Positions 4,578-63,992 of a DNA stretch of 64,000 nucleotides are shown here, piece by piece. Under the pieces are notes generated by a model. That model saw only the letters and a program-made list of their open reading frames with translations, did no database searches and was not told where the DNA came from. The stretch comes from Magnetococcales bacterium. GTDB lineage: Bacteria; Pseudomonadota; Magnetococcia; Magnetococcales; UBA8363. The translations under genes and the position numbers were made by a program. The first letter of the stretch is position 1; the number at the start of each line of letters is the position of its first letter. Location: assembly GCA_015228815.1 (NCBI GenBank), contig JADGCV010000010.1:46218-110217 (forward strand), in the 5' to 3' direction.

Positions 4578-4835
4578 ATGACATATTCCCCCGCCCCGTG
4601 GACCAAAAGACCGGATCCGTCTGGATTGGATGAAGAAATCATAGACGAGAACGGAGCCGTCATCGTCGAGGGGACAACCATCAACTTTCTTGCGGATGAA
4701 CTGTTGATTCTGGCGGCACCGGATCTTCTGGCCGCCTGCCAAAAGATGATTGAGGCTTGGGATTGCCGCTGCCCGGAAGCAGGCATTGTGGCGATCCAGC
4801 AAGCCGTTTCCAAGGCGAAAGGAGGTGCGGCATGA
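4578..4835 (+). CDS. hypothetical small phage protein
   Basis: 85-aa ORF with balanced composition. AAGGA lies upstream of ATG 4578. Confidence 0.5.
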   Translation: MTYSPAPWTKRPDPSGLDEEIIDENGAVIVEGTTINFLADELLILAAPDLLAACQKMIEAWDCRCPEAGIVAIQQAVSKAKGGAA

Positions 4836-4841
4836 AAGCCG

Positions 4842-5063
4842 TCATGTCTTCCATTTTTTCCATTCGGCCAGGGATTCAGGTGCTTCCAGGCGTGACCAAT
4901 CCCACCAGCCGAAACTCGACGTATGCCGATAGACCGCTTCAGCGGCCTGTTCCGGCGAGTCGTAGGTGTCGAGTTTTTCCCGGTCGATTGAAAGCTCGTA
5001 CTTTCCTGTTTTCGATGATCGGCGAATCCAAAAGAGTCCCCTGCGGGTCCGCAGCGTCCACAT
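4842..5063 (-). CDS. hypothetical protein (73 aa)
   Basis: Protein-like sequence (MWTLRTRRGLFWIRRSSKTGKYELSIDREKLDTYDSPEQAAEAVY...). The overlapping plus-strand ORF 4757..5128 is R/P-rich and was rejected. Confidence 0.45.
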   Translation of the reverse strand: MWTLRTRRGLFWIRRSSKTGKYELSIDREKLDTYDSPEQAAEAVYRHTSSFGWWDWSRLEAPESLAEWKKWKT

Positions 5064-7793: not shown

Positions 7794-9032
7794 ATGGAAA
7801 CAATTCCAATCAGTAATATTTTAGTTGGGCACCGACTGAGGCGGATTTGTCCGAAGTCAGTGGAAACGCTGGCTCAGAGCATTGGCGAAATCGGATTGAT
7901 GAACCCGGTCATGGTAGTCGCCATAGGCGTGAAGGGTGGTCAGCAATACAAGCTGATTGCTGGCAATCACCGCCTGGAGGCGTGCAAGCAACTTGGGATG
8001 ACCGAGATCGCCGCCAACGTCGTTCCCATTCAGGATGATCTTGACCAGAAGCTGGCAGAGATCGACGAAAACCTTTGCCGGTGCGAACTGAATCACCTGG
8101 AGCGGGCAGAGCATCTGGCGGAAAGGAAAGATGTATACGAGAAAAAACATCCAGAGACAGCAAAAGGTAAAACTGGCGCGCGAAAAATGAACCAATATCT
8201 TGGCCGCGGTATCAACAAAGGTGAAGACGTAAACGAATTAAATTCGTTTACGTCGGATACTGCCCAAAAGACCGGTGCCACGGAGCGCAGCATTCAGAAG
8301 TCAATCCGCCGCGCCAGCAAGATCTCCAAACCAGTCCGGGACCTGATCCGCGATGTGGAGGAGATCGCCGACAACAGTCTGGAACTGGACGCCCTTGCAG
8401 GCATGGATGAAGCGCAACAGAAGGCGGCGGTACAGGCAGTTCTGAACGGAAAAGTCGGTAGCGTGAGAGAGTTTGCGCAACAACAAATGGTAAATAACAA
8501 AGGTGAAGACGTAAACGAATTAAATTCGTTTACGTCGGATACTGCCCAAGACACGATCAAGAAAGTTGGCGCGACGGGCATGTCTGGTAGCGGGAAACAG
8601 ACTGAGAACGAACTTGCTTCGTTCTCAGTTGATACCTCCGAAAAAACCGGCACGAAGGGACGCATTTTTCCGGCGTTTGTCACGGAACGCAGCATCCCAC
8701 CTTCCGTCCCATCTCCGACGTCATCCACCGATCTTTTGGACCAGATCGAGAAATGGAAGCAACGCGCCCTGCAAGCGGAAAATGAGTCCATCAACCTCCA
8801 GCATCGACTGGATGATATCGAACTGAATGGAGCCTTCGGCACGATCAGCCGTGGCGTGATTTTTCAAAAGTTGCTCGACGATCTGGAATTCGGCCTGAGC
8901 CTCAGCCCGGAAAGCTTCTACCCCCAAACACTGCACAATTTCCGCGAACGTTTTCTGCGCCTGATCACCGCTATCGAGCAGGTGTTGAGCGGAATCAATC
9001 AACCAATTCTTTCAAATGGAGAACAACCATGA
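7794..9032 (+). CDS. ParB/Srx-fold N-terminal domain protein
   Basis: 'VETLAQSIGEIGLMNPVMVV...YKLIAGNHRLEACKQLGMTEI' is the ParB-like nuclease/CTPase-fold signature. The gene contains the two 54-bp repeats listed next. Confidence 0.8.
   Translation: METIPISNILVGHRLRRICPKSVETLAQSIGEIGLMNPVMVVAIGVKGGQQYKLIAGNHRLEACKQLGMTEIAANVVPIQDDLDQKLAEIDENLCRCELNHLERAEHLAERKDVYEKKHPETAKGKTGARKMNQYLGRGINKGEDVNELNSFTSDTAQKTGATERSIQKSIRRASKISKPVRDLIRDVEEIADNSLELDALAGMDEAQQKAAVQAVLNGKVGSVREFAQQQMVNNKGEDVNELNSFTSDTAQDTIKKVGATGMSGSGKQTENELASFSVDTSEKTGTKGRIFPAFVTERSIPPSVPSPTSSTDLLDQIEKWKQRALQAENESINLQHRLDDIELNGAFGTISRGVIFQKLLDDLEFGLSLSPESFYPQTLHNFRERFLRLITAIEQVLSGINQPILSNGEQP
8214..8267. repeat. 54-bp repeat copy 1, containing a 29-bp perfect palindrome (8226-8254)
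   Basis: AACAAAGGTGAAGACGTAAACGAATTAAATTCGTTTACGTCGGATACTGCCCAA. Palindrome: GACGTAAACGAATT-A-AATTCGTTTACGTC. Confidence 0.9.
8496..8549. repeat. 54-bp repeat copy 2, containing the same palindrome (8508-8536)
   Basis: Identical to 8214-8267 by eye. Both copies are in frame and encode NKGEDVNELNSFTSDTAQ. Confidence 0.9.
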
Positions 9033-40698: not shown

Positions 40699-42183
40699 AT
40701 GTCGAAACACATTCATTTTAATGCCGAGTCCAGGTCTTTCATCTTTGCCGAAGATGTCGGCGGCCCGGGAACGCCAGGGGCGAATCTGGTCACCGGGGCG
40801 GAACCACAGTCAGAACCGAACGCAGGGGATTGGTGGCTGAACGCCTTGAATTTCGAAGTTTCAGAGTTTGTCGGTGACCAATGGGTGGTGCGCGGCACGC
40901 TCAGGCGTGGTCAGGCGGTCCCTGGAGAACGGGGTCTCCCCGGACCCCAGGGGATTCAAGGAATCAAGGGTGATCCCGGCGATGTCGGTCCCCAAGGATC
41001 CCAGGGACCTCAAGGACCCCAGGGGATTCAAGGAATCAAGGGGGACAGCGGTAACATCGGACCCGCTGGACCCCAAGGTCCCCAAGGATCCCAAGGACCT
41101 CAAGGTTTGACCGGTCTGCAGGGGATCAAGGGTGACACCGGTGACGGCGGACCCCAAGGCCCCCAAGGTTCTCAAGGATCCCAAGGTTTGACCGGTCCGC
41201 AGGGGATCAAGGGTGACACCGGTGACGGCGGCGGAATGGTACCGGGCTATTTCGGCATGAATGATTGGATGGGCGTGGTCAAGAGAATCGGTTCCGTGAC
41301 ACTTGGAACGTCGATTCAAAAAATGATCTATTGCCCGAGCAATCACTATCTGTATGCGTTGGACAATGATGGGGTCGGTACCGTCAAGGTGTTGAACCCA
41401 TTGAACAACACCACGGTCGCCAGCTTCGCTCTGCCATCGGGACTCGGTGTTGGTACCGGCATGGCCTACAGCCCAGTCAACGACAAACTTTACATCGTCA
41501 CGCAAAGCAACAGCGTGGTCGTCATCGATCCCGCGACCAACGCCCTGGCCCCGGTGCAACCCATCGGGGTTGGTTCAAGCCCGGTCGCCATCGAATACTG
41601 CCCGGCAAACGACCGGCTGTATGTCTCGAATGCCGAAAGCAGCACCATTTCGGTCATCGATCCTTCGTTGAATACGGTCGTGGCCACGATTCCCCTGAGT
41701 GCGATGCCGGGCCAGATGGCCTACAGCCCCGTCAACGACAAACTTTACATCGTCACGCAAAGCAACAGCGTGGTCGTCATCGATCCGGTGAACCATTCCC
41801 CGATGACGGGCATCTCTGTCGGCGAGGGTCCCCTTTCCATCTCCTATTGTCCAGTCAACAACAGGATCTATACGACAAACCCCGGTGAAGGGACGATTTC
41901 CGTCATCGATCCCATGGACAACACGGTGCCCTACACCATGGGGATCAGTGCTGGACTTCCACAAGGCATCATCTACTGCCCGGACACCCGGAGAATGATG
42001 GCGACGACCGTTTTCCCGGGCAAGGTCATCGCCATCGAACCGACGGTCTACTCCGGAGGCCGGGAGACCGTCGCCGTGGCACTGACGGGATCGGGAAATG
42101 TTTCCCAAAACCTCGTGTATTGTCCTGTCAATCAAAGAAAATATGTCTTGCAGGGAGATTCCGGGGTACTCATCTTTTCCTGA
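40699..42183 (+). CDS. collagen-like (GXY) / YVTN-type beta-propeller repeat fibre protein
   Basis: About 34 uninterrupted G-X-Y triplets (nt ~40924-41235), then repeated '[23 protein letters not shown]' and '[23 protein letters not shown]' blades. Confidence 0.75.
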
Positions 42184-44067: not shown

Positions 44068-47000
44068 ATGCCTACGGCTTCTCTTGAATTCGCCCTTTTC
44101 ATGGACACCGCCAACATTGCCCAGGGGATGGGGCGTGCCAGGAAGGAAGTGGCGGCGGGTTTGCGTGGCATGACCCAGGCAGCCAAGGATGAACGCAGGC
44201 GTATCGAAGATGCATTGGCCAACATGACCGCCTTCCGGGAACTCAAAAAAGGGGTTGCCGAGGCCAGGGCCGAATGGGTGAAGACTCACACGGAGGCCAC
44301 CCGGCTTGGGGCGGCATTGAACCAGGTTGGCCCACCCACAAAGGCGATGAACCGGGAGTTTGAAACAGCGAAAAAAGTCGCAGCCGAAGCCCAAGCCACT
44401 TTTGTCCAGCAGAATGTCACCCTCCATTCCCTGCGCACCGCGATGGCCGCTGCCGGGGTGTCTACGACCGGTTTGGCTGCGGCTCAGGCCAGACTTCGTG
44501 CCGAGTTGGTCGCCAATGAGGCCAGGTTTCAGGCACAGTCCCGCTCGATGTCGCGCATCCAGGATGCCAGAAACATCCTCGACCTTGGCTCCAGGGTCAA
44601 CACCGACCGGGATATTCTGCGTCTCCAGGCGGCCTACGAACGGTTGCGTGCCTCCGGGAATCTGACCGGCATCGAGTTGGCACGCGCCCATGTAAAAATG
44701 ACGGAAGGCATCATCGCCTTGCGCAACGGCACGGACGGTTGGGCGGCACGCCTTGCCCTGGTCCGGGAACAACTGGTGCAACTGGCCATTGTCGGTGCGG
44801 GGATTGGCTTGGCGGCCAGGGAGGCCATCGCCTTCGAATCCGCCATGGCCAATGTTCGCAAGGTGGTGGATTTCCAGACCCCCGGCGAATTCAAGGAGTT
44901 GACCGCCGATCTTAAACACCTGTCGCGGGAAATTCCGACCTCCCTGGACGGTCTGGCGAAAATCGCCGAGGCGGGCGGGCAGATGGGGATTGCCACCAGG
45001 GAGATTCGTGGATTTACGGAAATCGTGGCCAAGATGTCCACGGCGTTCAACATTTCCCCCAACGAAGCCGGGGAAGCGGTCGGTCGGCTGATGAACATTT
45101 TCAAGTTGACCGTGCCGGAGACCCAACGTTTGGGCGACGCCCTCAATCATCTGGGAAACAACACCAACGCGGTGGAACGGGACATCCTCAACGTCCTGAA
45201 CCGCACGGGTAGCATGGCCAAGGTGTTTGGACTCGCCAATACGGAGGCCGCTGCCCTTGGAACGGCATTTTTGGCCCTGGGGCGTCCCCCGGAGATTGCC
45301 GCCACGGGCATCAACGCCTTGATGCAGACCCTCCAGACCGCCCCCACCCGTGAGGGGGAGTTCAAGCAGGCGTTGCAGCGTATCGGTTTTTCCGCCGAGC
45401 AGTTGGCCGCCGACCTTGCCAAAGCGCCACAGCAAACCTTGATGCATTTTCTGGAAACATTGAAAAGCCTGGACGCACAGACCCAATCGGAAACTTTGGT
45501 GAGGCTTTTTGGCCGGGAATATGCCGACGACCTTGCCCTCCTGCTGACGGGTCTGGACACCTACAAAAAGACCCTCGATCTGGTGGCCAAAGAGACCCAC
45601 TATGCGGGGTCGATGCAGAAGGAGTTCAACGAACGGGTCAAGACCACCGCCTCCCAGATACAATTGGCAGGCAATGCCTTCTCCGAAGCGGGGGTGAATC
45701 TGGGGTCTGCGTTTTTGCCTGCCATTGTCGCGGCCTCTCAAGGGATGGCCGCGATGGCCCATGGCGTTGCGGTTCTGGCCGACCGTTTTCCCCTTTTATC
45801 CGCATCCGTCGTTGCAACCGTGGCAGCCCTGGCGGGATGGGGTGCATTGCGGTTGGCGTGGAGCGTCATGCGGGCCGGGGTCATGGCGTTGACTGTCGAA
45901 CTGGGTTCGCTTGCCGTGGCGGCTCGTGCGTTGGTGCTTTCGCCAGTAGGAGCCGTGTTGACCGCTGCGGGTGTCGCGGCCTATGCGTTGGCCAAAGCCA
46001 CCGCCTCCAGCGTCCTGCCGTTGCTGGAAAACGCCGCTGCCCTGGGCAAAAGTCGGGAGGCGACGGCGGAAAAAATCAAAGTTCTGGAGACGTTGAAAAA
46101 AACTCTGGAGACCACCAAGGAAGGGACCCGGGAACACCTCGCTGCGGAAGAAAAACTGGCGGCCATTCTGCCAAAAGCCAATCTTTCTCTGGACGAGCAG
46201 GGACGAATTCTGGCCAGGACAGGAACGGCTGCCAGCGTCAACACCGAAAAACTCAAAGAATATCTCGACATGCTCAAACGAGAGGATCGCCAAACCCTGG
46301 CGTTGCAACTGGAGACGCAATCGCGGGCCTTGAGTGTCGGAAAAAAGGAACTGGCCTCCTATACCGAAGGCTTGCGCCATTGGTATGGCATCGGTGTTGG
46401 CAAGGCACAAACCGAATCGCAAAAATTTTGGCTGTGGTTGAACAAACTGACCGGCACCTACGAGCAGAATATCACCAAGGGTGCGGAACTGCGCCGCCAA
46501 TTCGATGAATCAGGGACCGGGTTGAACTCTTTGTTGACCGAGGCGAAAAAGGCGGGGATGTCCATGGAGGATCTGGGTCGGGCCATGGATGGCATCCATG
46601 CCGATGCCGCGACCAAAGGACAGGTCCTGGCCCTTTTCCGGGACATGACGGGTGCAGCGACCGCCGCCGCCGGAAAGGTGGGCACACTTGCCGACACCTT
46701 CAAACAATTCTCCATCGCCCTTTCCGGACCAACCGCCGCCGCCAGGAAAGGATTCGTGGAGGCCATGGGTGCCGCCGAGCTCCAACTGGGCAAATACAAT
46801 GAAGCCCTGGGGCAGCGCCGGGCAAAACTGAAGGATGCGGTGGACAACGAAACCAACTCGTACAAAGCCATGGCATCCGCCGCCGCAGTCGCCTTCGAAA
46901 CGGTCACCCAGGTCCTGGACGAGCAATTCGACCATCGCCGTGACCGGTTGCAAGCCATGGCGGGCGAGGAAGCACAGGCGCATCAGGTCTCCCAACGGGC

Positions 47001-48615
47001 CATGCTGCATGCCACCACCGCCCTGGCCATCGAGGAAACCCACGCCAAACTGACCCAGGCCGACCGGTCCATGCGGCAGTCCCTGGAATTATCGAAAAAA
47101 GAGTTTCAAACCAAGATCGACCATGCCAGGCGGCTGGGACTGGATGCCGCCAGGGTGGATGAGGAACGTTTGCAATCCCAGCGTGGCATCCTGGAAAAAA
47201 CGGCGGTCGCCTATCGCCAAAACATCGACCGGATGATCCAGGAGGAAAGACGGTTGCGGGATGAAGCCAGGAGTCTCGCCGAGCAGCGCAAGGAGTTCAA
47301 CGCATCGGTGGCGGATCGCGTGGCCAACGTCCAGGAAAAGGGGATGGACCCCGTGCAGGTCGATGTCTCCCGGCAAAAACGTCTTGCCGTGGAGCAATCC
47401 CAGGCCGAGGCTGCGTTGCAGGCGGGGAATTTTGCAACCGCGCGCAAACATGCCGAGAAGATGATCGCCCTGGCCGAATCGACCTCCGATGCGGTGCGCC
47501 GGGGTGACCAGGTGGTGATGGACGCCAAGACGGCAACAGCCCGTGCCATTCAACAGGTTCAGGCCGCGGCACAAATCGAAAACCAGGCATTTCTCGCGGA
47601 AGAAAAGGCAAACGTGGAAGCTGCCGATGCCCTGCAAACATCGGCGGCGGCATCAACCGACACGTTGACCCGATTGCGGAATGTTTTGCAAGAGGTCGAT
47701 GCCGCTCTTGCCAAGGACCATACCCTCATCCTTGGAGCCGACACGAAAAAAATAGCGCAAATCGGCCCGGAAATCGATGCGATCCTGGAGAAGATCAATC
47801 CGGTGGTGCAAATCAAGGCCGAACTTCAAAGCAGTGCAACGGCGTTGGAAACCGTCATCGAGGATGTGCGCCAAGGGGCCACCGACCGGGCCAAAGCGAA
47901 GATCGATCACGCCGCCAACATTTTTGCATCATTCAAGACAGAATTTGCCGGTTGGCAGCCGGAGGTCAAGGCGACCTTCGATGCGGTTGCCGCACACAAC
48001 GCCATCGATGGCCTGGTGGCCAAGATCAAGGAGATTGACAACCAGGGAGCCAAGGTGACGTTCGAAGCGGAAACCAGTGCTGCCATGGGCAAGATCGATC
48101 ATTTGATTGCCCGGATCACGGACATTCCGTCCGAGAAAACAGTCACCATCAACTATATCGAACGCAAGAATGTTGCCCCGAACCAGGGGGTTGCGACGGG
48201 GTTTGCCCGTGGCGGCTTCCTGCCGGGTTGGGGCGACGAAGACAACGTCCCCGCCTGGTTGCAGCCAGGCGAATTCGTGTTGAACAAGCAGGCCGTGCGC
48301 AAATACGGGCTGGAAAAAATTCACGCCCTGAACCAAATGCGGCTGCCACAGTTCGCGCACGGAGGTTTGGTGCGGCAACTGCGATCCAAGATGCCACGGT
48401 TTGAAATGGGTGGCGTGGTGCGCAATCTGGTGATTCCGACCCTGCCACGGATGTCATTCGCGGGTGGCGGGGCGGTCACACCTCCGGTTGAAGGGGTGGT
48501 GCGACTTGAATTGATCACGAACAGCCACCGGGTTCCCCCATCCCTCACCGGCAGCCGGGCACAAGTTCGTGAGTGGGTTCAGGCATTGCAGGAGTCGCAG
48601 CGGGGGATGGCGTAA
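44068..48615 (+). CDS. tail tape measure protein
   Basis: 1515 aa, Ala/Leu/Glu-rich coiled-coil character. Core 'GLAKIAEAGGQMGIATREIRGFTEIVAKMSTAFNISPNEAGEAVGRLMNIF' is typical of TMPs. Position after G/GT. Confidence 0.9.
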   Translation: MPTASLEFALFMDTANIAQGMGRARKEVAAGLRGMTQAAKDERRRIEDALANMTAFRELKKGVAEARAEWVKTHTEATRLGAALNQVGPPTKAMNREFETAKKVAAEAQATFVQQNVTLHSLRTAMAAAGVSTTGLAAAQARLRAELVANEARFQAQSRSMSRIQDARNILDLGSRVNTDRDILRLQAAYERLRASGNLTGIELARAHVKMTEGIIALRNGTDGWAARLALVREQLVQLAIVGAGIGLAAREAIAFESAMANVRKVVDFQTPGEFKELTADLKHLSREIPTSLDGLAKIAEAGGQMGIATREIRGFTEIVAKMSTAFNISPNEAGEAVGRLMNIFKLTVPETQRLGDALNHLGNNTNAVERDILNVLNRTGSMAKVFGLANTEAAALGTAFLALGRPPEIAATGINALMQTLQTAPTREGEFKQALQRIGFSAEQLAADLAKAPQQTLMHFLETLKSLDAQTQSETLVRLFGREYADDLALLLTGLDTYKKTLDLVAKETHYAGSMQKEFNERVKTTASQIQLAGNAFSEAGVNLGSAFLPAIVAASQGMAAMAHGVAVLADRFPLLSASVVATVAALAGWGALRLAWSVMRAGVMALTVELGSLAVAARALVLSPVGAVLTAAGVAAYALAKATASSVLPLLENAAALGKSREATAEKIKVLETLKKTLETTKEGTREHLAAEEKLAAILPKANLSLDEQGRILARTGTAASVNTEKLKEYLDMLKREDRQTLALQLETQSRALSVGKKELASYTEGLRHWYGIGVGKAQTESQKFWLWLNKLTGTYEQNITKGAELRRQFDESGTGLNSLLTEAKKAGMSMEDLGRAMDGIHADAATKGQVLALFRDMTGAATAAAGKVGTLADTFKQFSIALSGPTAAARKGFVEAMGAAELQLGKYNEALGQRRAKLKDAVDNETNSYKAMASAAAVAFETVTQVLDEQFDHRRDRLQAMAGEEAQAHQVSQRAMLHATTALAIEETHAKLTQADRSMRQSLELSKKEFQTKIDHARRLGLDAARVDEERLQSQRGILEKTAVAYRQNIDRMIQEERRLRDEARSLAEQRKEFNASVADRVANVQEKGMDPVQVDVSRQKRLAVEQSQAEAALQAGNFATARKHAEKMIALAESTSDAVRRGDQVVMDAKTATARAIQQVQAAAQIENQAFLAEEKANVEAADALQTSAAASTDTLTRLRNVLQEVDAALAKDHTLILGADTKKIAQIGPEIDAILEKINPVVQIKAELQSSATALETVIEDVRQGATDRAKAKIDHAANIFASFKTEFAGWQPEVKATFDAVAAHNAIDGLVAKIKEIDNQGAKVTFEAETSAAMGKIDHLIARITDIPSEKTVTINYIERKNVAPNQGVATGFARGGFLPGWGDEDNVPAWLQPGEFVLNKQAVRKYGLEKIHALNQMRLPQFAHGGLVRQLRSKMPRFEMGGVVRNLVIPTLPRMSFAGGGAVTPPVEGVVRLELITNSHRVPPSLTGSRAQVREWVQALQESQRGMA

Positions 48616-55861: not shown

Positions 55862-55932
55862 CACGTATAAGATCGTAGCCGTTCAGGCTCCCTCTCCCTC
55901 TGGGAGAGGGCCGGGGTGGGAGGATGTCATTT

Positions 55933-57084
55933 ATGCAGCTTAAAAGTTTGGTCAGCGTCTTTTCGACTTATTTCCTCCTGATTGGCTTGGCCATCTGCTT
56001 GGCTATGGTTCCGTCGGTAGTCGATGCAAGTGATTCTGACAAAAATGTTTACACGGTCCAGGTTTCTGCGAGTCGCTCGCGCGAGGACGCCATTGCCGAA
56101 ATGGAAAAACTGCGACGACAGGGTTTTACCCCTTTCATGCTGGATATTTATAATAGTAAGAACATCCTCTGGCATACTGTACAGATTGGCTATGATACCA
56201 ATTTACAGGTCGCTAAAAAACAAGCCCGGAAATTCAGGAAGAAAAGTGGGAAAAGTGCCGAAGTGTTAACGCTTCCCGCAACATCATTTGCTTACTTTAA
56301 GCTGCGTGCATCAGGAGAATCTTTTGAAGGGACTCAGAAATTATGGACAAATCAGCCATCACCAGCGATAGAAGAGCCTCCCAAAAATTTATCTGGTACC
56401 TATTCGCAGCAACCATCAGTGAGTTTGAAGGACATAAAACCAGACGTCTCTGATCCTGTGACCGATGGTAAGAAATTGAAGAGTATGGAACCAGACGTCC
56501 CAGATTCTTTAGACGTCGCGAGCCCTTTGACCAATGATAAGAAATGGTATGTTGTTGCCAGTGTTGGTGTATCTCATGTTGGTAAAAGTTCTGAAGATTT
56601 GGATCGCGACCTTTCCTCTCAAGGTTTTACCACCACTTCCTCAATCGATAGAACCAACCAAGGTTTAAAGTTGATTGGAGGGTACAAGTTTGCTCGGTAT
56701 TTAGGAGTTGAGGCTGGTTTTGTCCATTTCACGAAAGTCAACACCAAGATAGACGCATCTAATGCGGGCGGCATTGCCAATGCGGTCGTCAACCACGCTC
56801 CATTGACGATGAACGGTGCTGTAATGTCTGGGGTTGGCACTTGGCGAATTACCCCTGAAATCGCTTTACATGGAAAGGCCGGTGGATTTTTGTGGAACGG
56901 AAAGGTCAACGCCAACGCCCTGGGGGATAGCGTAACCCGCAAAGATGATGGCATCGATCCAATATTGGGTGTAGGTGCCGAGTTTAACATATCAGACCAG
57001 ACGTTGTTTCGTATCGAATGGGATCGGTATTTAACTTCCGATAAGATGGATCTCTTTTCTTCTGGAGTTGGAGTCCGGTTTTAA
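55933..57084 (+). CDS. SPOR-domain / C-terminal beta-barrel outer-membrane protein
   Basis: Signal peptide ending 'VVDA|SD'. 'YTVQVSASRSREDAIAEMEKLRRQGFTPFM...WHTVQIGYDTNLQVAKKQARKF' is SPOR-like. The C-terminal alternating beta strands end in '...GVGVRF' (aromatic terminus of OMP barrels). Confidence 0.7.
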   Translation: MQLKSLVSVFSTYFLLIGLAICLAMVPSVVDASDSDKNVYTVQVSASRSREDAIAEMEKLRRQGFTPFMLDIYNSKNILWHTVQIGYDTNLQVAKKQARKFRKKSGKSAEVLTLPATSFAYFKLRASGESFEGTQKLWTNQPSPAIEEPPKNLSGTYSQQPSVSLKDIKPDVSDPVTDGKKLKSMEPDVPDSLDVASPLTNDKKWYVVASVGVSHVGKSSEDLDRDLSSQGFTTTSSIDRTNQGLKLIGGYKFARYLGVEAGFVHFTKVNTKIDASNAGGIANAVVNHAPLTMNGAVMSGVGTWRITPEIALHGKAGGFLWNGKVNANALGDSVTRKDDGIDPILGVGAEFNISDQTLFRIEWDRYLTSDKMDLFSSGVGVRF

Positions 57085-60000
57085 TGCGTATACTTACAAA
57101 AAGACAATTAATACCTCCTTTTGGCTATCCATTGATTGTTGGTCTGGTATTGGTTCTGCTTGTTATTTCTGGGTGCTTTGAAGGGGGTAACGTTGATATT
57201 ATAACCAAACAAACATCTGATGACACTGATATCAGTTCCTCTGGCGGGGACGGTATTGGACCTGATGATAATATTTATATAGTTACTTTCGATGGTACAT
57301 CCTCAGACTCATCAGAATCTTCAGCAAATAATAACGCTTCACTGTTAGCAGACTTCGAAACAATAGATATACCAAAGAGAGGATTTGCAAATAATTATTC
57401 TTCATTTGATTTTCTATCAAAAACTGGTGCCAGATTTGATCGCCTTTTATCTTTTAGTACAAAATTTGCGTTCGCACAATCATTTGATAGAGTGAGATGG
57501 TTATCTCAACATGTGCAGATGGATTCTGAATTTTGTTATGAAGAAAAGAAAAAATATCCGGGAAATGCCTATTGCGGATTTGCTTCAGTCTTGATGGGAG
57601 CGGACTATCTTTTAAATGGGGAAACTACACCAAAGGCACCAGCGACCCTTGGTTATAGTGATGATACGTCAAGATGGATCGTAAATTCTGTAAAAGATGC
57701 ATTCAAAGATAAATACAGTCCATGTGGCGGCCTCCTTGGTATCCTTCCAGATGATGACATACCAACGTTTGCTAAAGAGCTAGGTGTGAGTAAACCAGAC
57801 TCACAATCAAAATCTGATGGAGCCACACCATTTGATAAAACAAGTCGTTCTAAAACTGCAGCAGAAGAATGGCTTAGAACCGCCTTGAATAATCGTCGGC
57901 CTGTAGTTGCAAGAATTCCTTACCAAGGTAATAAAATTCTTGGGCAAAAATCAAGAGAGAATTATTTCTCAGGAGGAACAAAAACAGTAGAAATGAAGGC
58001 AGACCCAAAGTCGGAGAAAGACCCAGAGTCGGTTGTTCGTCATTGGATATTGATCGCTGAAATAAATGACGATACGGTTTTGACCTATGATCCGGATCCG
58101 CATGCCAAGAATGAAGAAGCTGGCATAAGGAGGTATACCAAGAGTTCATTTTTTGAACAGCTAGTAGACAATAGGAATAAATCTAAAGGTCGGATGTTTA
58201 TGTATCAATTATGTGCGGATTGTGAATCTGGTACAGAGGCATTTGCAGCACCAGCCCAAGGAGTAACATTAAGCCTTAATCATTTGCACACAGCAGGCAA
58301 CAGCACTCCCATTGTGTCACCTCTTGTTCCAAATTGCCAGTTTTCTTCACAAAACATGCCTCCTGGACTGTCATTGGATACAGAAGGGCGGATTAATGGT
58401 ACGGCAACACAAACAGGATCATCTTCACCGACAATTATAATGCAATGTAACAATGATAATGTTAATCGTGTAGCGACAAAAAATATTAGTATGACAATCG
58501 TTTCAGATAATTTGAATACCACACCAGGGACGGATACAATAGCCAGCATTGATCTTATTACCCTATCAAAGCTCAAAAATGGTAAAGTTGGAAATATATA
58601 TTCATTGCCACTTTCCACATCCAGAGCATCTGATTCTTTATCTTTCAGCGTTATTGACGGAAAATTACCACCCGGCCTAAACCTGACTGGCGGTACTATT
58701 GTGGGAAAACCAACTCTAAGTGGTACCTACAGTTTCGATATACGTGCAACAATATCAACAGCTTCAGCTACGAAAAACTTTACAATAGTTGTCGATCCCC
58801 AAACGGATGCTCTAGTAATTGCGCCAACGCTAAATAAAATACAACCTGATACCGTTTTAGGCAAAAACGGACAGCAGCTAATGAAGTTAGTCGGTTCTGG
58901 ATTTAGCGATGGCTCGCGTGTTCGCCTTGTGGACATTACCAACAATGTAACCTATGAAAAAAGTCCGGTATCCGTAAAGGATGCCGAAATTGAGATTAGA
59001 GCCAACTTCTCTACAGACAAAGCCACCTGGACGGCTACTGTAGTAGGGCCAACAGGATTGGAGTCTGCACCTGTTTCATTTTCAGTGTTGGCTCCAAGTA
59101 CAGAAGCAAGTCGTCCCATCGTGTGGCCAAGAGCTTGGACGCAGCCACTTGATGACGACCTCAGAGTGACTGCAGAGTATGGAGCCTTTGGTAAAGATTG
59201 TTCGAATGCCGATCTAACGGCAGTGTATACATACTATCTCGATAGTGGTCGACTGGAACACCTCGGCTTGGACTTATCTGCTGCTGCTGGAAAAGTTGTA
59301 AAGAGCATTGCACCGGGTAAGGTTATCTATAGTGGAAAGATGTGGACTGAAAAATGGGCTGACGTTATTCTGGTAGAACATTGGACTACCAGTGCGGAAA
59401 CTTTCACAGCGGTATACGGCCATCTTAATTCAAGTGTGAAAAAAGGCGATGAAGTCAAGGCAGGAGACCAGCTTGGTACAGTTTATAATCTGCCGTCTCC
59501 GTATGGATCTCATCTTCACTTTGGCGTTGCAAAAGACAGGCAAACCTCTGTTCCAGGATTTTCCAGTGATAACAATTCAACAAATGGCGCATGCACACAG
59601 CATCCTGGTGTAACTATTAATCCAGAAACTTTCTTGCAAGGGAGATCACCGGCAGATGTTGCTCCTACAAATGCAAAGTTGGCTATTCCAATCAACTTGA
59701 CGCCTGGCAGTGAGACGAGTCCAGGAAGCACCGTAGGGAGTGGTCAAGTCACCTTAAGTTGGTCCTCAGTAACTGGGGCAACGTATTACGAAGTCATAGT
59801 TAAAGATACTGATACAGGCTCTTCACAAAGCACGACTGTAAAGACTACATCTTATAGTTCCAACCTTGTCCCTGGAAAAAAATATCAATGGTATGTTTCT
59901 GCATGTAACGGTAACGGCTGCTCCAAACACACCTTAGGTCAATATTTCCAAACTCCAGGAGATAGCATACCAGATACGCCGACCATCGACATGACCAACT

Positions 60001-61448
60001 CTGTATTTGGAAGTATTACCGGTCCAGGTACAATGATGAGTAGTACGTCGGTAAGCCTGTCATGGAGTACGATGAGTCGGGCGACACGCTACGAACTAGG
60101 TGTTCGGGATGTCACTACCAATAACCTCGTTGTAGATACCTCTATTGTTGGAACATCCTATACTGCAAATCTGGATCCAGAAAAACAATACAAGTGGAAT
60201 GTCGCTGCCTGTAATAGTTCCGGATGTTCAAAATATACAACTCCAATCTATTTTCAAACACCAAAACTCGCTGCCTCATTTTCACCGCCTGTTGTAACCT
60301 TGACCGATGGCCAGATCGGTTCCAATCCTCCTGTCCCTGTAGCAGGTACCTTGACTGTCAATAGTGGTTCATCTGGTACATCAGGGACATTGAGTGCCAA
60401 CAATCCTGACGGTGGTTCATTGACCTATAGTATCGTGACCAATGGGTCGAAGGGGGTGGCAACGATCACTAATTCTGCCACCGGAGCCTACACCTATGCG
60501 CCAAACGCTGGTAGCAGTGGGACGGATACATTCACCTTCAAAGTTAACAATGGCAAAGTGGATTCCAATGTTGCGACGATCACGGTCACGATCACTCCGG
60601 ACAGCGCGGTGGTGCCGACCATCACTTCATTGAGCCCGACCAGTATGACCGCCTCTGGGACGCAACAGACCCTGACAATCAACGGCAGCAATTTTGTTGC
60701 TGGTAACCTGGTTCAGTTCAAGTGGGGCGTAGGATCAGAAGCCAATATTTGGAAAAATTCGACTTCGACACCGAGTGTGACGTCCAACCAAATCAGCCTG
60801 GGTATATATCCTGGCACCGTCTCCGATACGATTCATGTTCGTGTATGTACCAACAGCGATGCAATCAATTGTTCTTCACAACAATCTATGACAGTAACGT
60901 CTGCAACTTCATTTTCACCGCCTGTTGTAACCTTGACCGATGGTCAGATCGGTTCCAAAGGTATCGTTGCCAAGACCGGTCAAACCACATCTTATGCAGC
61001 GGGGGACGATGGTGCCCTGCAAAAGGGCGTTGCTTGGCCCAACCCGCGCTTCACCGATAATAGCAACGGCACGGTCACGGACAATCTGACAGGTTTGATT
61101 TGGCTCAAGAGTGCCAATTGCTTTAACCCTCAGGATTGGACCTCTGCCCTGGCCACGGCCAAAGGGTTGGCCAATGGGCAGTGCGATCTGGCGGATGGCT
61201 CCGTTGCCGGTGATTGGCGACTACCCAACATCAACGAACTGGAAAGTTTGGTCGACTATAGTCATCATTGGCTCTATCAGGAGGCCGGGTATCCGTTTTC
61301 GGGCGTCCGGCTCAGCCACTATTGGTCGGGCTCCACGCACGCCCACTACACGTCCGGCGCCTGGTACGTGCACCTCGGCTACGGCATCGTGTACCACAAC
61401 GACAAGGCGAACAGCAACCTTGTCTGGCCTGTGCGAGGCGGAGAATGA
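57084..61448 (+). CDS. 1454-aa multidomain lipoprotein, DGR target 1 (papain-like peptidase, Ig/IPT/FN3-like repeats, M23 peptidase, C-terminal DUF1566 domain carrying VR1)
   Basis: Lipobox 'LLVISGC'. Candidate Cys/His pair 'GNAYCGFASVLMG' / 'VRHWILIAEINDD'. 'PPGLSLD'/'PPGLNLTGGTIVGKPT' Ig-type repeats. M23 motifs 'HLGLDLSAAAG', 'AVYGHL', 'GSHLHFGV'. Two FN3-like 'LSWS...Y(Y/E)...Y.W.V.ACN..GCS' modules. DUF1566 'DWRLPNINELESL'. Confidence 0.85.
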   Translation: MRILTKRQLIPPFGYPLIVGLVLVLLVISGCFEGGNVDIITKQTSDDTDISSSGGDGIGPDDNIYIVTFDGTSSDSSESSANNNASLLADFETIDIPKRGFANNYSSFDFLSKTGARFDRLLSFSTKFAFAQSFDRVRWLSQHVQMDSEFCYEEKKKYPGNAYCGFASVLMGADYLLNGETTPKAPATLGYSDDTSRWIVNSVKDAFKDKYSPCGGLLGILPDDDIPTFAKELGVSKPDSQSKSDGATPFDKTSRSKTAAEEWLRTALNNRRPVVARIPYQGNKILGQKSRENYFSGGTKTVEMKADPKSEKDPESVVRHWILIAEINDDTVLTYDPDPHAKNEEAGIRRYTKSSFFEQLVDNRNKSKGRMFMYQLCADCESGTEAFAAPAQGVTLSLNHLHTAGNSTPIVSPLVPNCQFSSQNMPPGLSLDTEGRINGTATQTGSSSPTIIMQCNNDNVNRVATKNISMTIVSDNLNTTPGTDTIASIDLITLSKLKNGKVGNIYSLPLSTSRASDSLSFSVIDGKLPPGLNLTGGTIVGKPTLSGTYSFDIRATISTASATKNFTIVVDPQTDALVIAPTLNKIQPDTVLGKNGQQLMKLVGSGFSDGSRVRLVDITNNVTYEKSPVSVKDAEIEIRANFSTDKATWTATVVGPTGLESAPVSFSVLAPSTEASRPIVWPRAWTQPLDDDLRVTAEYGAFGKDCSNADLTAVYTYYLDSGRLEHLGLDLSAAAGKVVKSIAPGKVIYSGKMWTEKWADVILVEHWTTSAETFTAVYGHLNSSVKKGDEVKAGDQLGTVYNLPSPYGSHLHFGVAKDRQTSVPGFSSDNNSTNGACTQHPGVTINPETFLQGRSPADVAPTNAKLAIPINLTPGSETSPGSTVGSGQVTLSWSSVTGATYYEVIVKDTDTGSSQSTTVKTTSYSSNLVPGKKYQWYVSACNGNGCSKHTLGQYFQTPGDSIPDTPTIDMTNSVFGSITGPGTMMSSTSVSLSWSTMSRATRYELGVRDVTTNNLVVDTSIVGTSYTANLDPEKQYKWNVAACNSSGCSKYTTPIYFQTPKLAASFSPPVVTLTDGQIGSNPPVPVAGTLTVNSGSSGTSGTLSANNPDGGSLTYSIVTNGSKGVATITNSATGAYTYAPNAGSSGTDTFTFKVNNGKVDSNVATITVTITPDSAVVPTITSLSPTSMTASGTQQTLTINGSNFVAGNLVQFKWGVGSEANIWKNSTSTPSVTSNQISLGIYPGTVSDTIHVRVCTNSDAINCSSQQSMTVTSATSFSPPVVTLTDGQIGSKGIVAKTGQTTSYAAGDDGALQKGVAWPNPRFTDNSNGTVTDNLTGLIWLKSANCFNPQDWTSALATAKGLANGQCDLADGSVAGDWRLPNINELESLVDYSHHWLYQEAGYPFSGVRLSHYWSGSTHAHYTSGAWYVHLGYGIVYHNDKANSNLVWPVRGGE
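61287..61442 (+). repeat. DGR variable region VR1 (with invariant flanks)
   Basis: Gap-free alignment with 63752-63907. The first 22 and last 21 nt are identical. About 34 mismatches (hand count) in the central 114 nt, mostly in codon positions 1-2 of NNC codons. Confidence 0.85.
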
Positions 61449-63025
61449 TGGTCCCCTCTTCCCTGTCATCCATGGATCATCCCCTGTTCACTGCGGAGAA
61501 CCTTTATTGGGCCTGGCGAAAATGTAGGCGTCGAAAAAGCCATATCCGGAGCGCTACCGATTTTGAGTACAATCTGGAAGAGAACCTGTTCGCCTTGCGT
61601 GATGAGTTGCGGCGGCGACGTTACTGTCCCGCTCCCTCGCGGGCCTTTCTGGTGGCAAAGCCCAAACGTCGGGAAATCTTTGCAGCTCAATTTCGTGACC
61701 GCGTGGTCCATCATCTTCTCGTGGATCACCTGGAACCGGGTTGGGAGCGCCGTTTTATTCATGATTCCTTTGCCTGCCGTAAAGGCAAGGGGACCCATGC
61801 GGCGGTGGAACGACTGCGTTCCATGACGCGCCAAGTGACTGCCAACGGTTCCCGCCCGGCGTGGTATCTGCAGTTGGACATCAAAGGCTTCTTCATCTCC
61901 ATCGATCGGCGGATCCTTTTTTCAAGGTTGGTGGCGCACGAAATAGATCCCGTCGTCCTCGATCTGATCCGGCTTCTGGTTTTCCACGACCCCACCCGGA
62001 ATTGCCGCTTGTGCGGTCAGCCCATGTCCGCGTTTCAGGCGTTACCGGCCCATAAGACCCTGTTCAAGGCTGCCTCGGAGTGTGGGCTCCCCATCGGCAA
62101 TCTGACCAGCCAGTTTTTCGCTAACGTCTATTTGGATACACTGGATCAGTTTTGTAAGCATCACCTGAAAATCCGGCATTATGTCCGCTATTGTGACGAT
62201 TTCGTGATTCTGGCCAACCATGCGGACGAGTTGCGGGTCTGGGAGCGGCAGATTGAAACATTTCTCTGGGCTCACCTCCGATTGCGTTTGAATGAGAAAA
62301 GGAAACTGCGCCCCGTTTCCGACGGTATCGATTTTCTGGGATACATCGTGCGCCCGGATTATCTTCTGACACGCAAGCGTGTGGCGGGCGCTCTTCGGGA
62401 AAGACTGTCCGGAGCTCAAGCCATTCTGGTAGCTGAAGGTATGACGCTGGCTGAGGGGGAATCCCGTTTTTTCCCTTGGAACCGGACTCTTATGAACCGA
62501 GTCAGACAATGGCTGGTCTCCTTTCGCGACCATACCGAACGGGCCTCCAGTCACCGTCTTTGGGGTGACATGATACGCCGTTTCCACTGGTTGGATGAAT
62601 ATTTCATCTGGCGCAACGGCATCCCAAACTTTCGTTACCCGCCACCCTTCCATTCTCAGAGTTTTAATCAGCAGAAACGTTGGTTCCTCAGTCTGTTTCC
62701 GGATCACGTGGTCATGATCCGATTGGGCTCCTACTGGGAGATCGCTGCGTCCCGCGCCGACCTGTTACCTATTCCCAGTTGGCACGGTCGGCGTTTTACT
62801 GAACGCAGTTTCCAGGCGATCAACCGCATCCTTCTGACTCGATGGGGGCGTGTGGTCTGGATTGATGAGACCGGACGGAGGATCACTCCCATTGCGGAAC
62901 GAGTATTGACAGGACACTGGCCGGGGAATTTTTCGGGTTGTCCACCAAAACCAGATTCTCCAATGGTTGTTGAAGAGCGGCATGGAGGTGAAAAGCCTCC
63001 TTTTCAGCAGGCGGAACAAGGGTGA
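61445..63025 (+). CDS. DGR-type reverse transcriptase with MutS-domain-I-like C-terminal extension (alternative start ATG 61472)
   Basis: 'FRDRVVHHLLVDHL', 'SFACRKGKGTHAAV', 'GLPIGNLTSQFFANVYL' (62093-62113) and 'YCDD' (62189-62200). The ATGATG start overlaps the target-1 stop. Confidence 0.9.
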   Translation: MMVPSSLSSMDHPLFTAENLYWAWRKCRRRKSHIRSATDFEYNLEENLFALRDELRRRRYCPAPSRAFLVAKPKRREIFAAQFRDRVVHHLLVDHLEPGWERRFIHDSFACRKGKGTHAAVERLRSMTRQVTANGSRPAWYLQLDIKGFFISIDRRILFSRLVAHEIDPVVLDLIRLLVFHDPTRNCRLCGQPMSAFQALPAHKTLFKAASECGLPIGNLTSQFFANVYLDTLDQFCKHHLKIRHYVRYCDDFVILANHADELRVWERQIETFLWAHLRLRLNEKRKLRPVSDGIDFLGYIVRPDYLLTRKRVAGALRERLSGAQAILVAEGMTLAEGESRFFPWNRTLMNRVRQWLVSFRDHTERASSHRLWGDMIRRFHWLDEYFIWRNGIPNFRYPPPFHSQSFNQQKRWFLSLFPDHVVMIRLGSYWEIAASRADLLPIPSWHGRRFTERSFQAINRILLTRWGRVVWIDETGRRITPIAERVLTGHWPGNFSGCPPKPDSPMVVEERHGGEKPPFQQAEQG

Positions 63026-63316: not shown

Positions 63317-63913
63317 GTGAAACGGATGCGCATGTTTTTGGATAACGGGGTAGCAGAGTGGATACTGGCCATATCTTTATTTTTTGTATTTTCCTCAGTG
63401 CATGCTGCGGGAGCGCCGCCCGCCCCGGTTCCCAAGACGGGCCAGACCACTTTGTATGGCGCTGGCGACGACGGCGCGTTGCAAAAGGGTTTGGCATGGG
63501 CCACCCCCCGCTTTTCGGACATGGGAGATGGGACGGTACGGGATACCCTGACCAGTCTGATCTGGATGAAAAATGCCAATTGTTGGGGTGACATGGCTTG
63601 GTTATCCGCCCTGGCCAAGGTTGCTGGTCTTAACGGTGGCACGGAAACCTGTTCCGGCTATACCGGGAACCAAACCGACTGGCGTCTGCCGAGTATCAAG
63701 GAACTTAGAAGCCTGATCGACTATGGTCATTTCAAACCGGCGTTGTCGGCTGGGTATCCGTTTTCGGGCGTCCAGACCAACTACTATTGGTCTGGATCCA
63801 CGGTCGCGAGTGGCACGTCCGGCGCATGGGTCGTGAGCCTCGACAACGGCTACGTGAACGACAGCGACAAGACGTACAGTTTCTATGTCTGGCCTGTGCG
63901 AGGCGGACCATAG
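63317..63913 (+). CDS. secreted DUF1566-domain protein, DGR target 2 (carries VR2)
   Basis: GTG 63317 follows GGGAGG. Signal peptide '...FVFSSVHA|AG'. 'KTGQTTLYGAGDDGALQKG', 'DWRLPSIKELRSL'. Confidence 0.85.
   Translation: MKRMRMFLDNGVAEWILAISLFFVFSSVHAAGAPPAPVPKTGQTTLYGAGDDGALQKGLAWATPRFSDMGDGTVRDTLTSLIWMKNANCWGDMAWLSALAKVAGLNGGTETCSGYTGNQTDWRLPSIKELRSLIDYGHFKPALSAGYPFSGVQTNYYWSGSTVASGTSGAWVVSLDNGYVNDSDKTYSFYVWPVRGGP
63752..63907 (+). repeat. DGR variable region VR2 (with invariant flanks)
   Basis: See VR1. Same length and same invariant ends: GGGTATCCGTTTTCGGGCGTCC ... GTCTGGCCTGTGCGAGGCGGA. Confidence 0.85.
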
Positions 63914-63951
63914 GGCCTTGGATACTTTGGGTGCTTTGCGAGGGGGGAGTG

Positions 63952-63977
63952 CAGAGGGGGGAGGCTTCCCCCCTCTG
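63952..63977 (+). other. GC-rich hairpin downstream of VR2 (10-11 bp stem, GGCT tetraloop)
   Basis: CAGAGGGGGG-AGGCTT-CCCCCCTCTG read directly. It lies 45 nt after the last invariant VR2 base. Confidence 0.8.
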
Positions 63978-63992
63978 CCCGCCGCAGGCGGG
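63978..63992 (+). other. second short GC hairpin (terminator-like)
   Basis: CCCGCC-GCA-GGCGGG followed by ATTCTTGT. The window ends at 64000. Confidence 0.5.

Follow-up and report, generated by a model that had tools for sequence, protein, structure and literature searches.

A MutS domain I-like C-terminal extension on the reverse transcriptase of a diversity-generating retroelement in a Magnetococcales bacterium

We analysed a stretch of 64,000 nucleotides (nt) from a Magnetococcales bacterium (contig JADGCV010000010.1, positions 46,218 to 110,217), hereafter the window, in which an open reading frame (ORF) close to the 3' end encodes the reverse transcriptase (RT) of a diversity-generating retroelement (DGR). 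Beyond its polymerase core this RT carries a C-terminal extension that resembles domain I (Pfam MutS_I) of MutS, a protein of mismatch repair. The RT gene and its parts were placed with Pfam, an AlphaFold2 (AF2) model and an alignment of RT homologues (A1), and are listed here with protein lengths in amino acids (aa).

61445–63025, forward strand: DGR reverse transcriptase gene, 526 aa (intact ORF; Pfam RVT_1, E 8e-20; AF2 model; fold match; invariant columns of A1)
61667–62350, forward strand: RT fingers/palm domain, residues 75–302 (Pfam RVT_1)
62657–62929, forward strand: degenerate MutS domain I-like C-terminal domain, residues 405–495 (profile comparison, AF2 model, Foldseek, isoelectric point)
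62933–63022, forward strand: C-terminal tail, residues 497–526, unconserved in A1 and predicted to be disordered (predicted local distance difference test score, pLDDT, below 50)

The ATG at 61445 that opens the RT ORF overlaps the TGA of an upstream gene for a 1454-aa protein as ATGA. Beyond RVT_1 the ORF runs on for ~140 aa past the thumb, as the original prediction, made from the letters alone, had proposed; no shorter RT isoform, which that prediction had named as a sign against itself, is present in the window. The motifs IGNLTSQ (residues 217–223) and YCDD (249–252) are both invariant across A1. The AF2 model of the full RT, for which 62 homologues served as input, reached a pLDDT of 89.4 and a predicted template-modelling score (pTM) of 0.80, and it showed a separate, confidently modelled alpha/beta unit at residues 405–495 ahead of the disordered tail. 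Its closest fold in the PDB was the Bordetella phage RT, bRT (8ub7; Foldseek E 6e-23, 30% identity, template-modelling (TM) score 0.87 on the target), with group II intron RTs ranking behind. Because the best fold match was 8ub7 and the two motifs are invariant, we identify the gene as the RT of a DGR, an assignment also backed by the target proteins with Pfam Lcl_C domains that lie beside it. More than 100 homologues at 48–64% identity span more than 90% of the protein; no RT covering the extension was found in the GenBank phage collection. The RT departs from 14 of 198 conserved family columns, which places it in the upper tail of the family. We considered pseudogenisation of the RT and found no evidence for it, with the ORF intact and half of these departures (7 of the 14) common to the nearest relative, locus L086.

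Read in the RT frame, nucleotides 62660–62926 translate to SFNQQKRWFLSLFPDHVVMIRLGSYWEIAASRADLLPIPSWHGRRFTERSFQAINRILLTRWGRVVWIDETGRRITPIAERVLTGHWPG, a stretch that contains SFNQQKRWF...GSYWE...VVWIDETGRR...AERVLTGHWPG and that the original prediction had aligned by eye with MutS domain I. Of the comparisons proposed there, a single-sequence Pfam search detected no MutS_I in the window RT, and Pfam together with NCBIfam, applied to the RT and separately to the last 154 aa of it, returned RT matches only, whereas profile–profile comparison did find MutS_I. For this comparison the extension domain was represented by an alignment of 61 sequences (A2) and the MutS_I domains of DGRs by an alignment of 16 sequences (A5), 14 of which score above the Pfam cut-off (P0215 and P0247 do not do so clearly). 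A2 matched A5 over 89 columns with an hhalign probability of 99.2% (E 1.5e-19), and the likeness that had been seen by eye is thus real at the profile level. A5 in turn matched domain I of MutS from Taq (E 7e-16) and E. coli (E 6e-10) as well as MSH6 and MSH3, with E-values ranging to 5e-6. Because A2 matches A5 and A5 matches MutS structures, the extension reads, at the level of sequence profiles, as a degenerate descendant of MutS domain I.

Further searches with A2 gave results of varying strength. Against 177,635 PDB sequences the top match was residues 16–57 of Taq MutS at a marginal E of 0.077, with the GxFWE of the family aligned on GDFYE. Against the standalone MSL protein of a related locus (L001), the hhalign probability was 87.7% (E 3.4e-6). 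A profile search of 1.84 billion representatives yielded 142 clusters at 50% identity and retrieved Pfam-positive MSL proteins and RT-MutS_I fusions at E-values of 2e-7 to 8e-4; small standalone proteins and other DGR RTs obtained in this search themselves pass Pfam MutS_I (E 1e-13 to 4e-4).

Foldseek with the full RT model returned RTs only, and the extension domain was therefore modelled separately, giving a pLDDT of 89.5. MutS and MSH chains made up 19 of the top 30 PDB matches of this domain model (TM 0.45–0.63), and the remaining matches had TM values of at most 0.42. The predicted elements are a helix at 407–417, strands at 422–427, 430–435 and 450–452, a helix at 453–466 and strands at 470–479 and 484–492. 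In predicted fold topology, in the N-terminal QQ helix, in the G-x-aromatic-x-Glu hairpin and in the C-terminal VAxxEQ/ER strands, the extension appears to align with MutS domain I (PF01624; bacterial MutS, MSH3/MSH6). It differs from that domain in scoring below the Pfam threshold, and in the clade of the window RT a variable loop stands in for the central helix and strand segment, and RFP for GFP, while the hairpin itself is kept in most members. In the window RT, G428-S-Y430-W-E432 takes the place of G-D-F36-Y-E38 of MutS, with Tyr for Phe at the stacking position, and the protein is without the connector, clamp and ATPase domains of MutS. The domain is strongly basic, with an isoelectric point of 11.5 in the window RT, and the family has a median of 10.8 and a net charge of +6.

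Several observations weigh against a straightforward MutS domain I. When the 61 family domains were searched one by one, Pfam MutS_I was matched in only 2, weakly (best E 0.085), and the Foldseek E-values of the MutS/MSH matches (0.2–2.6) are not significant alone. At the mismatch hairpin, neither the Phe nor the Glu position is invariant in the family: 55 of the 61 members (90%) have an aromatic residue at the counterpart of Phe36, and 45 (74%) have Glu at that of Glu38. In A2, Q410, G428 and R486 are invariant, and H421, W472, E475-T-G477, E485 and R491-W492 are nearly so. Most of these best conserved residues (Q410, H421, W472, ETG 475–477, ER 485–486, RW 491–492) are specific to the family, and the domain may have a role other than that of its MutS counterpart.

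Extensions of this kind recur among relatives of the window RT: about 34 of its 80 best GTDB relatives have a MutS_I-like extension, and RTs at 36–45% identity carry a more canonical fused MutS_I (E against A5 mostly 1e-12 to 1e-32). About 20% of DGR RTs have extensions, up to ~150 aa long, and in three related RTs the extension shows weak identity to MutS_I (Wu et al. 2018, Nucleic Acids Res 46:11, PMC5758913). The same survey lists MSL as a DGR accessory gene that is always accompanied by avd, and the MSL genes and the three fusions together agree with the statement in the original prediction that MutS-like accessory functions had been catalogued. The three published RTs resemble the window RT in having a MutS domain I-like extension past the thumb with an uncharacterised role; they differ in that theirs was recorded in only three proteins, and weakly, while the window domain is too divergent for Pfam, needs profile–profile comparison and belongs to a larger clade. 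The window RT is thus a further, more divergent case of an RT-fused MutS_I that had already been reported. MSL itself (Architecture D of Wu et al.; Msl of Bacteroides and Legionella DGRs) belongs to the same domain family and the same kind of element, but it is standalone and Pfam-positive, whereas in the window the module is a degenerate part of the RT itself, in a cassette without an MSL gene.

The setting of the extension was examined in related loci, which were found with the full RT alignment, as no stretch of the domain alignment was conserved enough to serve. In nine of them (L001, L003–L008, L087 and L088), with RTs 51–60% identical to that of the window, the layout is an Lcl_C target gene ending in a variable repeat (VR1), MSL, bAvd, a ~230-nt spacer, the template repeat (TR) and the RT with its extension; where the sequence continues, a second Lcl_C target (VR2) usually follows downstream of the RT. 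MSL in these loci is a standalone MutS_I protein of ~105–115 aa; MSL proteins as a group measure 105–128 aa and pass Pfam MutS_I with E-values as low as 1e-15. The spacer between avd and TR is strongly conserved (alignment A6: L001 5682–5853, L005, L086, L087, L088), with invariant blocks that include CGGGCGAGCC and ATCATTGTGCGTCCG; it probably forms a structured element within the DGR RNA. A separate MSL gene accompanies RTs with a degenerate fused domain (L001–L008, L087, L088), and no separate MSL gene was found beside RTs with a near-canonical fused MutS_I (L009–L024, L036, L051, L058, L076). Two proteins of mixed composition were also seen: P0223 (112 aa) reads as the N-terminal half of MSL joined to the C-terminal half of an RT extension (…PIDWIAETGRPFARIAERVVTVTW), and P0196 has an Avd-like start, MAQYEHLAIYKKAMDL, followed by a MutS_I domain. 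Judged from their composition, each of the two seems to have arisen by a deletion within a DGR cassette.

Hidden Markov models (HMMs) for Avd and MSL were built from these relatives; they detect Avd in ~70 of the 85 loci fetched. Avd, an accessory gene that most DGRs possess, lies directly upstream of the RT in 24 of the 25 extension-bearing loci outside the window with at least 580 nt of upstream sequence. The sole exception is L086, which keeps the last ~30 nt of avd (GETGHGQNR*), the entire spacer and an intact A-rich TR, the body of avd having been replaced by a nucleotidyltransferase/HEPN (toxin-antitoxin-like) pair (L086 52–793; remnant 794–835). Because the 3' end of avd and the spacer are still there, the loss of avd in L086 is secondary. 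In the window, a six-frame ORF scan with the same HMMs gave no match to Avd or MSL with the E-value limit raised to 20, and the conserved spacer motif is likewise absent from it. The original prediction was therefore right that the 64-kb window has no Avd gene. The tie that it implied between the missing Avd and the fused domain was not supported, given the 24 of 25 related loci that carry Avd and the loss of MSL, spacer and TR from the window as well. Because Avd is present in nearly all extension-bearing loci, the fused domain does not appear to be a substitute for it.

The target genes, repeats and hairpins that flank the RT in the window are the following.

57084–61448, forward strand: target gene 1, 1454 aa, with Peptidase_M23, fn3, Big_9 and a C-terminal Lcl_C that holds the variable repeat (ORF list; Pfam)
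61283–61442, forward strand: repeat copy 1, VR-like over its full length but in the slot of a template repeat (repeat search; alignments with TR and VR of L001 and L086)
63317–63913, forward strand: target gene 2, 198 aa; N-terminus resembling a signal peptide, and an Lcl_C domain (ORF list; Pfam Lcl_C E 1e-28)
63748–63907, forward strand: variable repeat 2, VR2 (repeat search; comparison with the L086 TR)
63951–63991, forward strand: two adjacent GC-rich hairpins 3' of VR2, at 63951–63978 and 63979–63991 (DNA fold)

The repeats sit at the 3' ends of their respective target genes, and both target proteins end in Lcl_C (Pfam E 1e-25 to 1e-28). The two 160-nt copies are 78% identical, and no third copy was found in the window. 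They differ at 35 positions; copy 1 has A at 10 of these and copy 2 at 13. Copy 1 was considered as the TR of VR2 and rejected, since 25 of the 35 mismatches do not fall on its adenines. As the mismatches are not concentrated at the adenines of either copy, neither templates the other. We used the TR of L086, whose RT is 64% identical to that of the window, as a proxy for the missing template (43 adenines, 105 other positions). Copy 2 differs from it at 16 of the 43 adenines and 7 of the 105 non-adenines, and copy 1 at 19 and 13, respectively; six of the non-adenine differences are common to both copies. Because both copies differ from this TR mainly at adenines, we conclude that both are variable repeats whose diversity came from a TR that the window no longer contains. 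At 1454 aa, target 1 is unusually large, and a 50-nt direct repeat within it (60276–60325 and 60909–60958, 98% identical), which encodes SFSPPVVTLTDGQIGS, flanks an internal segment; this repeat suggests a domain duplication or an insertion.

The 3' flank of copy 1, GAGAATGATGG, is that of the TR-RT junction of L001 and L086: in the loci with the normal layout the TR ends 2–3 bases before the RT start (…GGAGGAGAATGATGG…), and copy 1 has exactly that flank (…GGCGGAGAATGATGG…). On its 5' side copy 1 continues into the full-length target gene. A hairpin pair follows VR2 of the window and both variable repeats of L001 (L001 ~4828–4875 and 8800–8848), and we take these post-VR hairpins to be of the kind that serves as a DGR target-recognition element; copy 1 is without them. 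The order in the window is thus VR1 joined straight to the RT start, the RT, and target 2 with VR2 and its hairpins. Since copy 1 has a TR-type 3' flank and no post-VR hairpins, and since Avd, MSL, spacer and TR are all missing, the simplest reading of the sequence is that a deletion of ~1.2 kb between VR1 and TR has taken out MSL together with avd, spacer and TR. Such a deletion could have arisen by short-homology recombination within the last ~23 identical nt, or through a complementary DNA (cDNA) containing the mutagenised TR and the RT 5' end that bridged VR1 and the 5' end of the RT. With TR, spacer and Avd missing, the cassette is probably no longer able to diversify its targets. Given an intact RT ORF and departures from the consensus of which half recur in the nearest relative, we infer that the deletion is either recent or not yet visible as decay.

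Three points weigh against this deletion. Decay of the RT ORF is not clearly apparent. Only 87 nt of the window follow VR2, and a TR or Avd could lie in the rest of the 117-kb contig or at another place in the genome. Finally, the junction between VR1 and the RT could be an assembly error, which we consider possible but less likely. In that event the missing MSL, avd and TR would be an artefact or a minority variant, the contig having jumped from VR1 to the TR of a cassette that is in reality canonical. VR and TR are near-identical and ~1.2 kb apart, heterogeneity of the VR population makes assembly harder, and the metagenome and viral contigs scanned contained nothing that matched the RT 5' end exactly, so that no other public contig independently confirms the junction. 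The identity that an assembly jump could use is only ~23 nt, however, if copy 1 is VR1 throughout, and ~23 nt is below the usual final k-mer sizes of assemblers. Across the junction, target 1 also stays in frame and finishes in a normal Lcl_C. On balance, we regard an artefact or minority variant as unlikely and read the window cassette as a deletion remnant.

We believe, with somewhat better than even confidence, that the observations are best explained jointly by an RT domain derived from MutS_I, a window cassette that is a deletion remnant, and an anti-repair role of the domain in the intact relatives. There, by itself or in a pair with MSL, the fused domain would bind mismatched or distorted DNA at the heteroduplex of cDNA and VR during integration, and the bound domain would help this mismatch-dense intermediate to escape host MutS-dependent repair. 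Such escape would be the most likely role of the extension. An anti-repair role fits published data in that deletion of host mutS raises retrohoming of a Bacteroides DGR 5- to 10-fold, in an all-or-nothing manner, and Msl is a recognised DGR accessory factor whose role is uncharacterised (bioRxiv 10.1101/2024.11.15.621889). Two considerations weigh against it: retrohoming in Bordetella phage reportedly did not require host MutS (Wu et al. 2018, PMC5758913), and mismatch binding by RT-fused MutS_I or MSL proteins is putative. A more specific version of the proposal is that the fused domain and MSL of the relatives pair like the asymmetric domain I copies of the MutS dimer and act as a decoy, which would block host MutS on the adenine-mismatched heteroduplex and thereby fix the new sequence. 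The finding of separate MSL genes only where the fused domain is degenerate is consistent with a division of labour but is no test of pairing, and we consider this version doubtful.

Two other roles were weighed for the extension, and we think each of them improbable. The fused domain could be a target-DNA recognition module that reads the hairpins or a cruciform 3' of the VR to place cDNA integration. Its position directly after the thumb and its strongly basic character would suit such a module, as would the conserved tandem hairpins 3' of variable repeats in the clade (seen in window VR2 and L001). MutS-family proteins bind kinked or branched DNA, and group II intron RTs, the closest non-DGR RT family, carry a DNA-binding D domain directly after the thumb; the latter is a positional analogy only, with no sequence or fold relationship to the extension found. 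The Phe-X-Glu-like hairpin kept in most members suits contacts of the mismatch type at least as well, however, and target recognition, which is argued by analogy, leaves the standalone MSL gene unexplained. The extension could instead be a structural or RNA-binding appendage that holds the DGR RNA or mediates RT oligomerisation and has lost MutS-like DNA functions. The missing central segment of MutS_I, the strongest conservation lying in family-specific motifs and the basic charge all favour such an appendage, and the pTM of the whole-RT model suggests, indirectly, that the domain packs on the RT. The retention of the mismatch-hairpin aromatic and Glu in most of the family and the less degenerate RT-MutS_I fusions of sister clades argue against it.

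The explanation implied by the original prediction, a DGR that is independent of Avd because its fused MutS_I module takes over from it, is in our view very unlikely: the window and its closest relative L086 both lack an intact avd while keeping an intact RT ORF, and Avd-less DGR lineages have been reported (Wu et al. 2018, PMC5758913), but Avd accompanies the extension almost everywhere else, L086 lost it secondarily, and the window is also without a TR, which no accessory protein can replace and for which copy 1, differing from VR2 mostly at its own non-adenines, cannot stand in.

The wider neighbourhood of the cassette is phage-like. A 1515-aa ORF at 44068–48615 contains the minor-tail/tape-measure domain PhageMin_Tail (E 1e-36), and from these gene contents the DGR appears to lie where the tail module of a phage or prophage ends, just downstream of the tape-measure gene. 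Upstream of the latter, a 494-aa ORF at 40699–42183 has collagen triple-helix repeats followed by a DUF4394/beta-propeller-like region and may encode a tail fibre. A 386-aa ORF at 55924–57084 with SPOR and OmpA-like beta-barrel domains abuts target 1, its stop ending at 57084, where target 1 starts. The phage tail gene neighbourhood is one of the features that the window shares with the BPP-1 DGR (bRT-Avd-TR RNA, 8ub7), together with the RT core, adenine-specific VR differences and post-VR hairpins. The two differ in that bRT has 328 aa and no C-terminal domain, whereas the window has the extension but neither Avd nor a separate TR. Bordetella phage bRT needs Avd.

The extension bears on the question of how the mismatch-dense cDNA of a DGR integrates and escapes mismatch repair; no functional study of the catalogued MutS-like accessory proteins (Msl) was found in the literature. 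Much of the otherwise unexplained C-terminal extension of DGR RTs appears to be derived from MutS domain I and to coexist with Avd and, in one clade, with MSL. What the present analysis adds to the earlier reports is a homology made firm with profiles, its extent among GTDB relatives, the coexistence with Avd, and a reading of the Avd-less state of the window as that of a deletion remnant. The window is also a caution, in that a seemingly Avd-less DGR can be a deletion remnant without a TR. Because this may be the case here, the intact relatives (L001, L004, L005) are the ones to study, and in them the MutS_I-derived extension offers a concrete, testable handle on how DGR cDNA is integrated and may escape repair.

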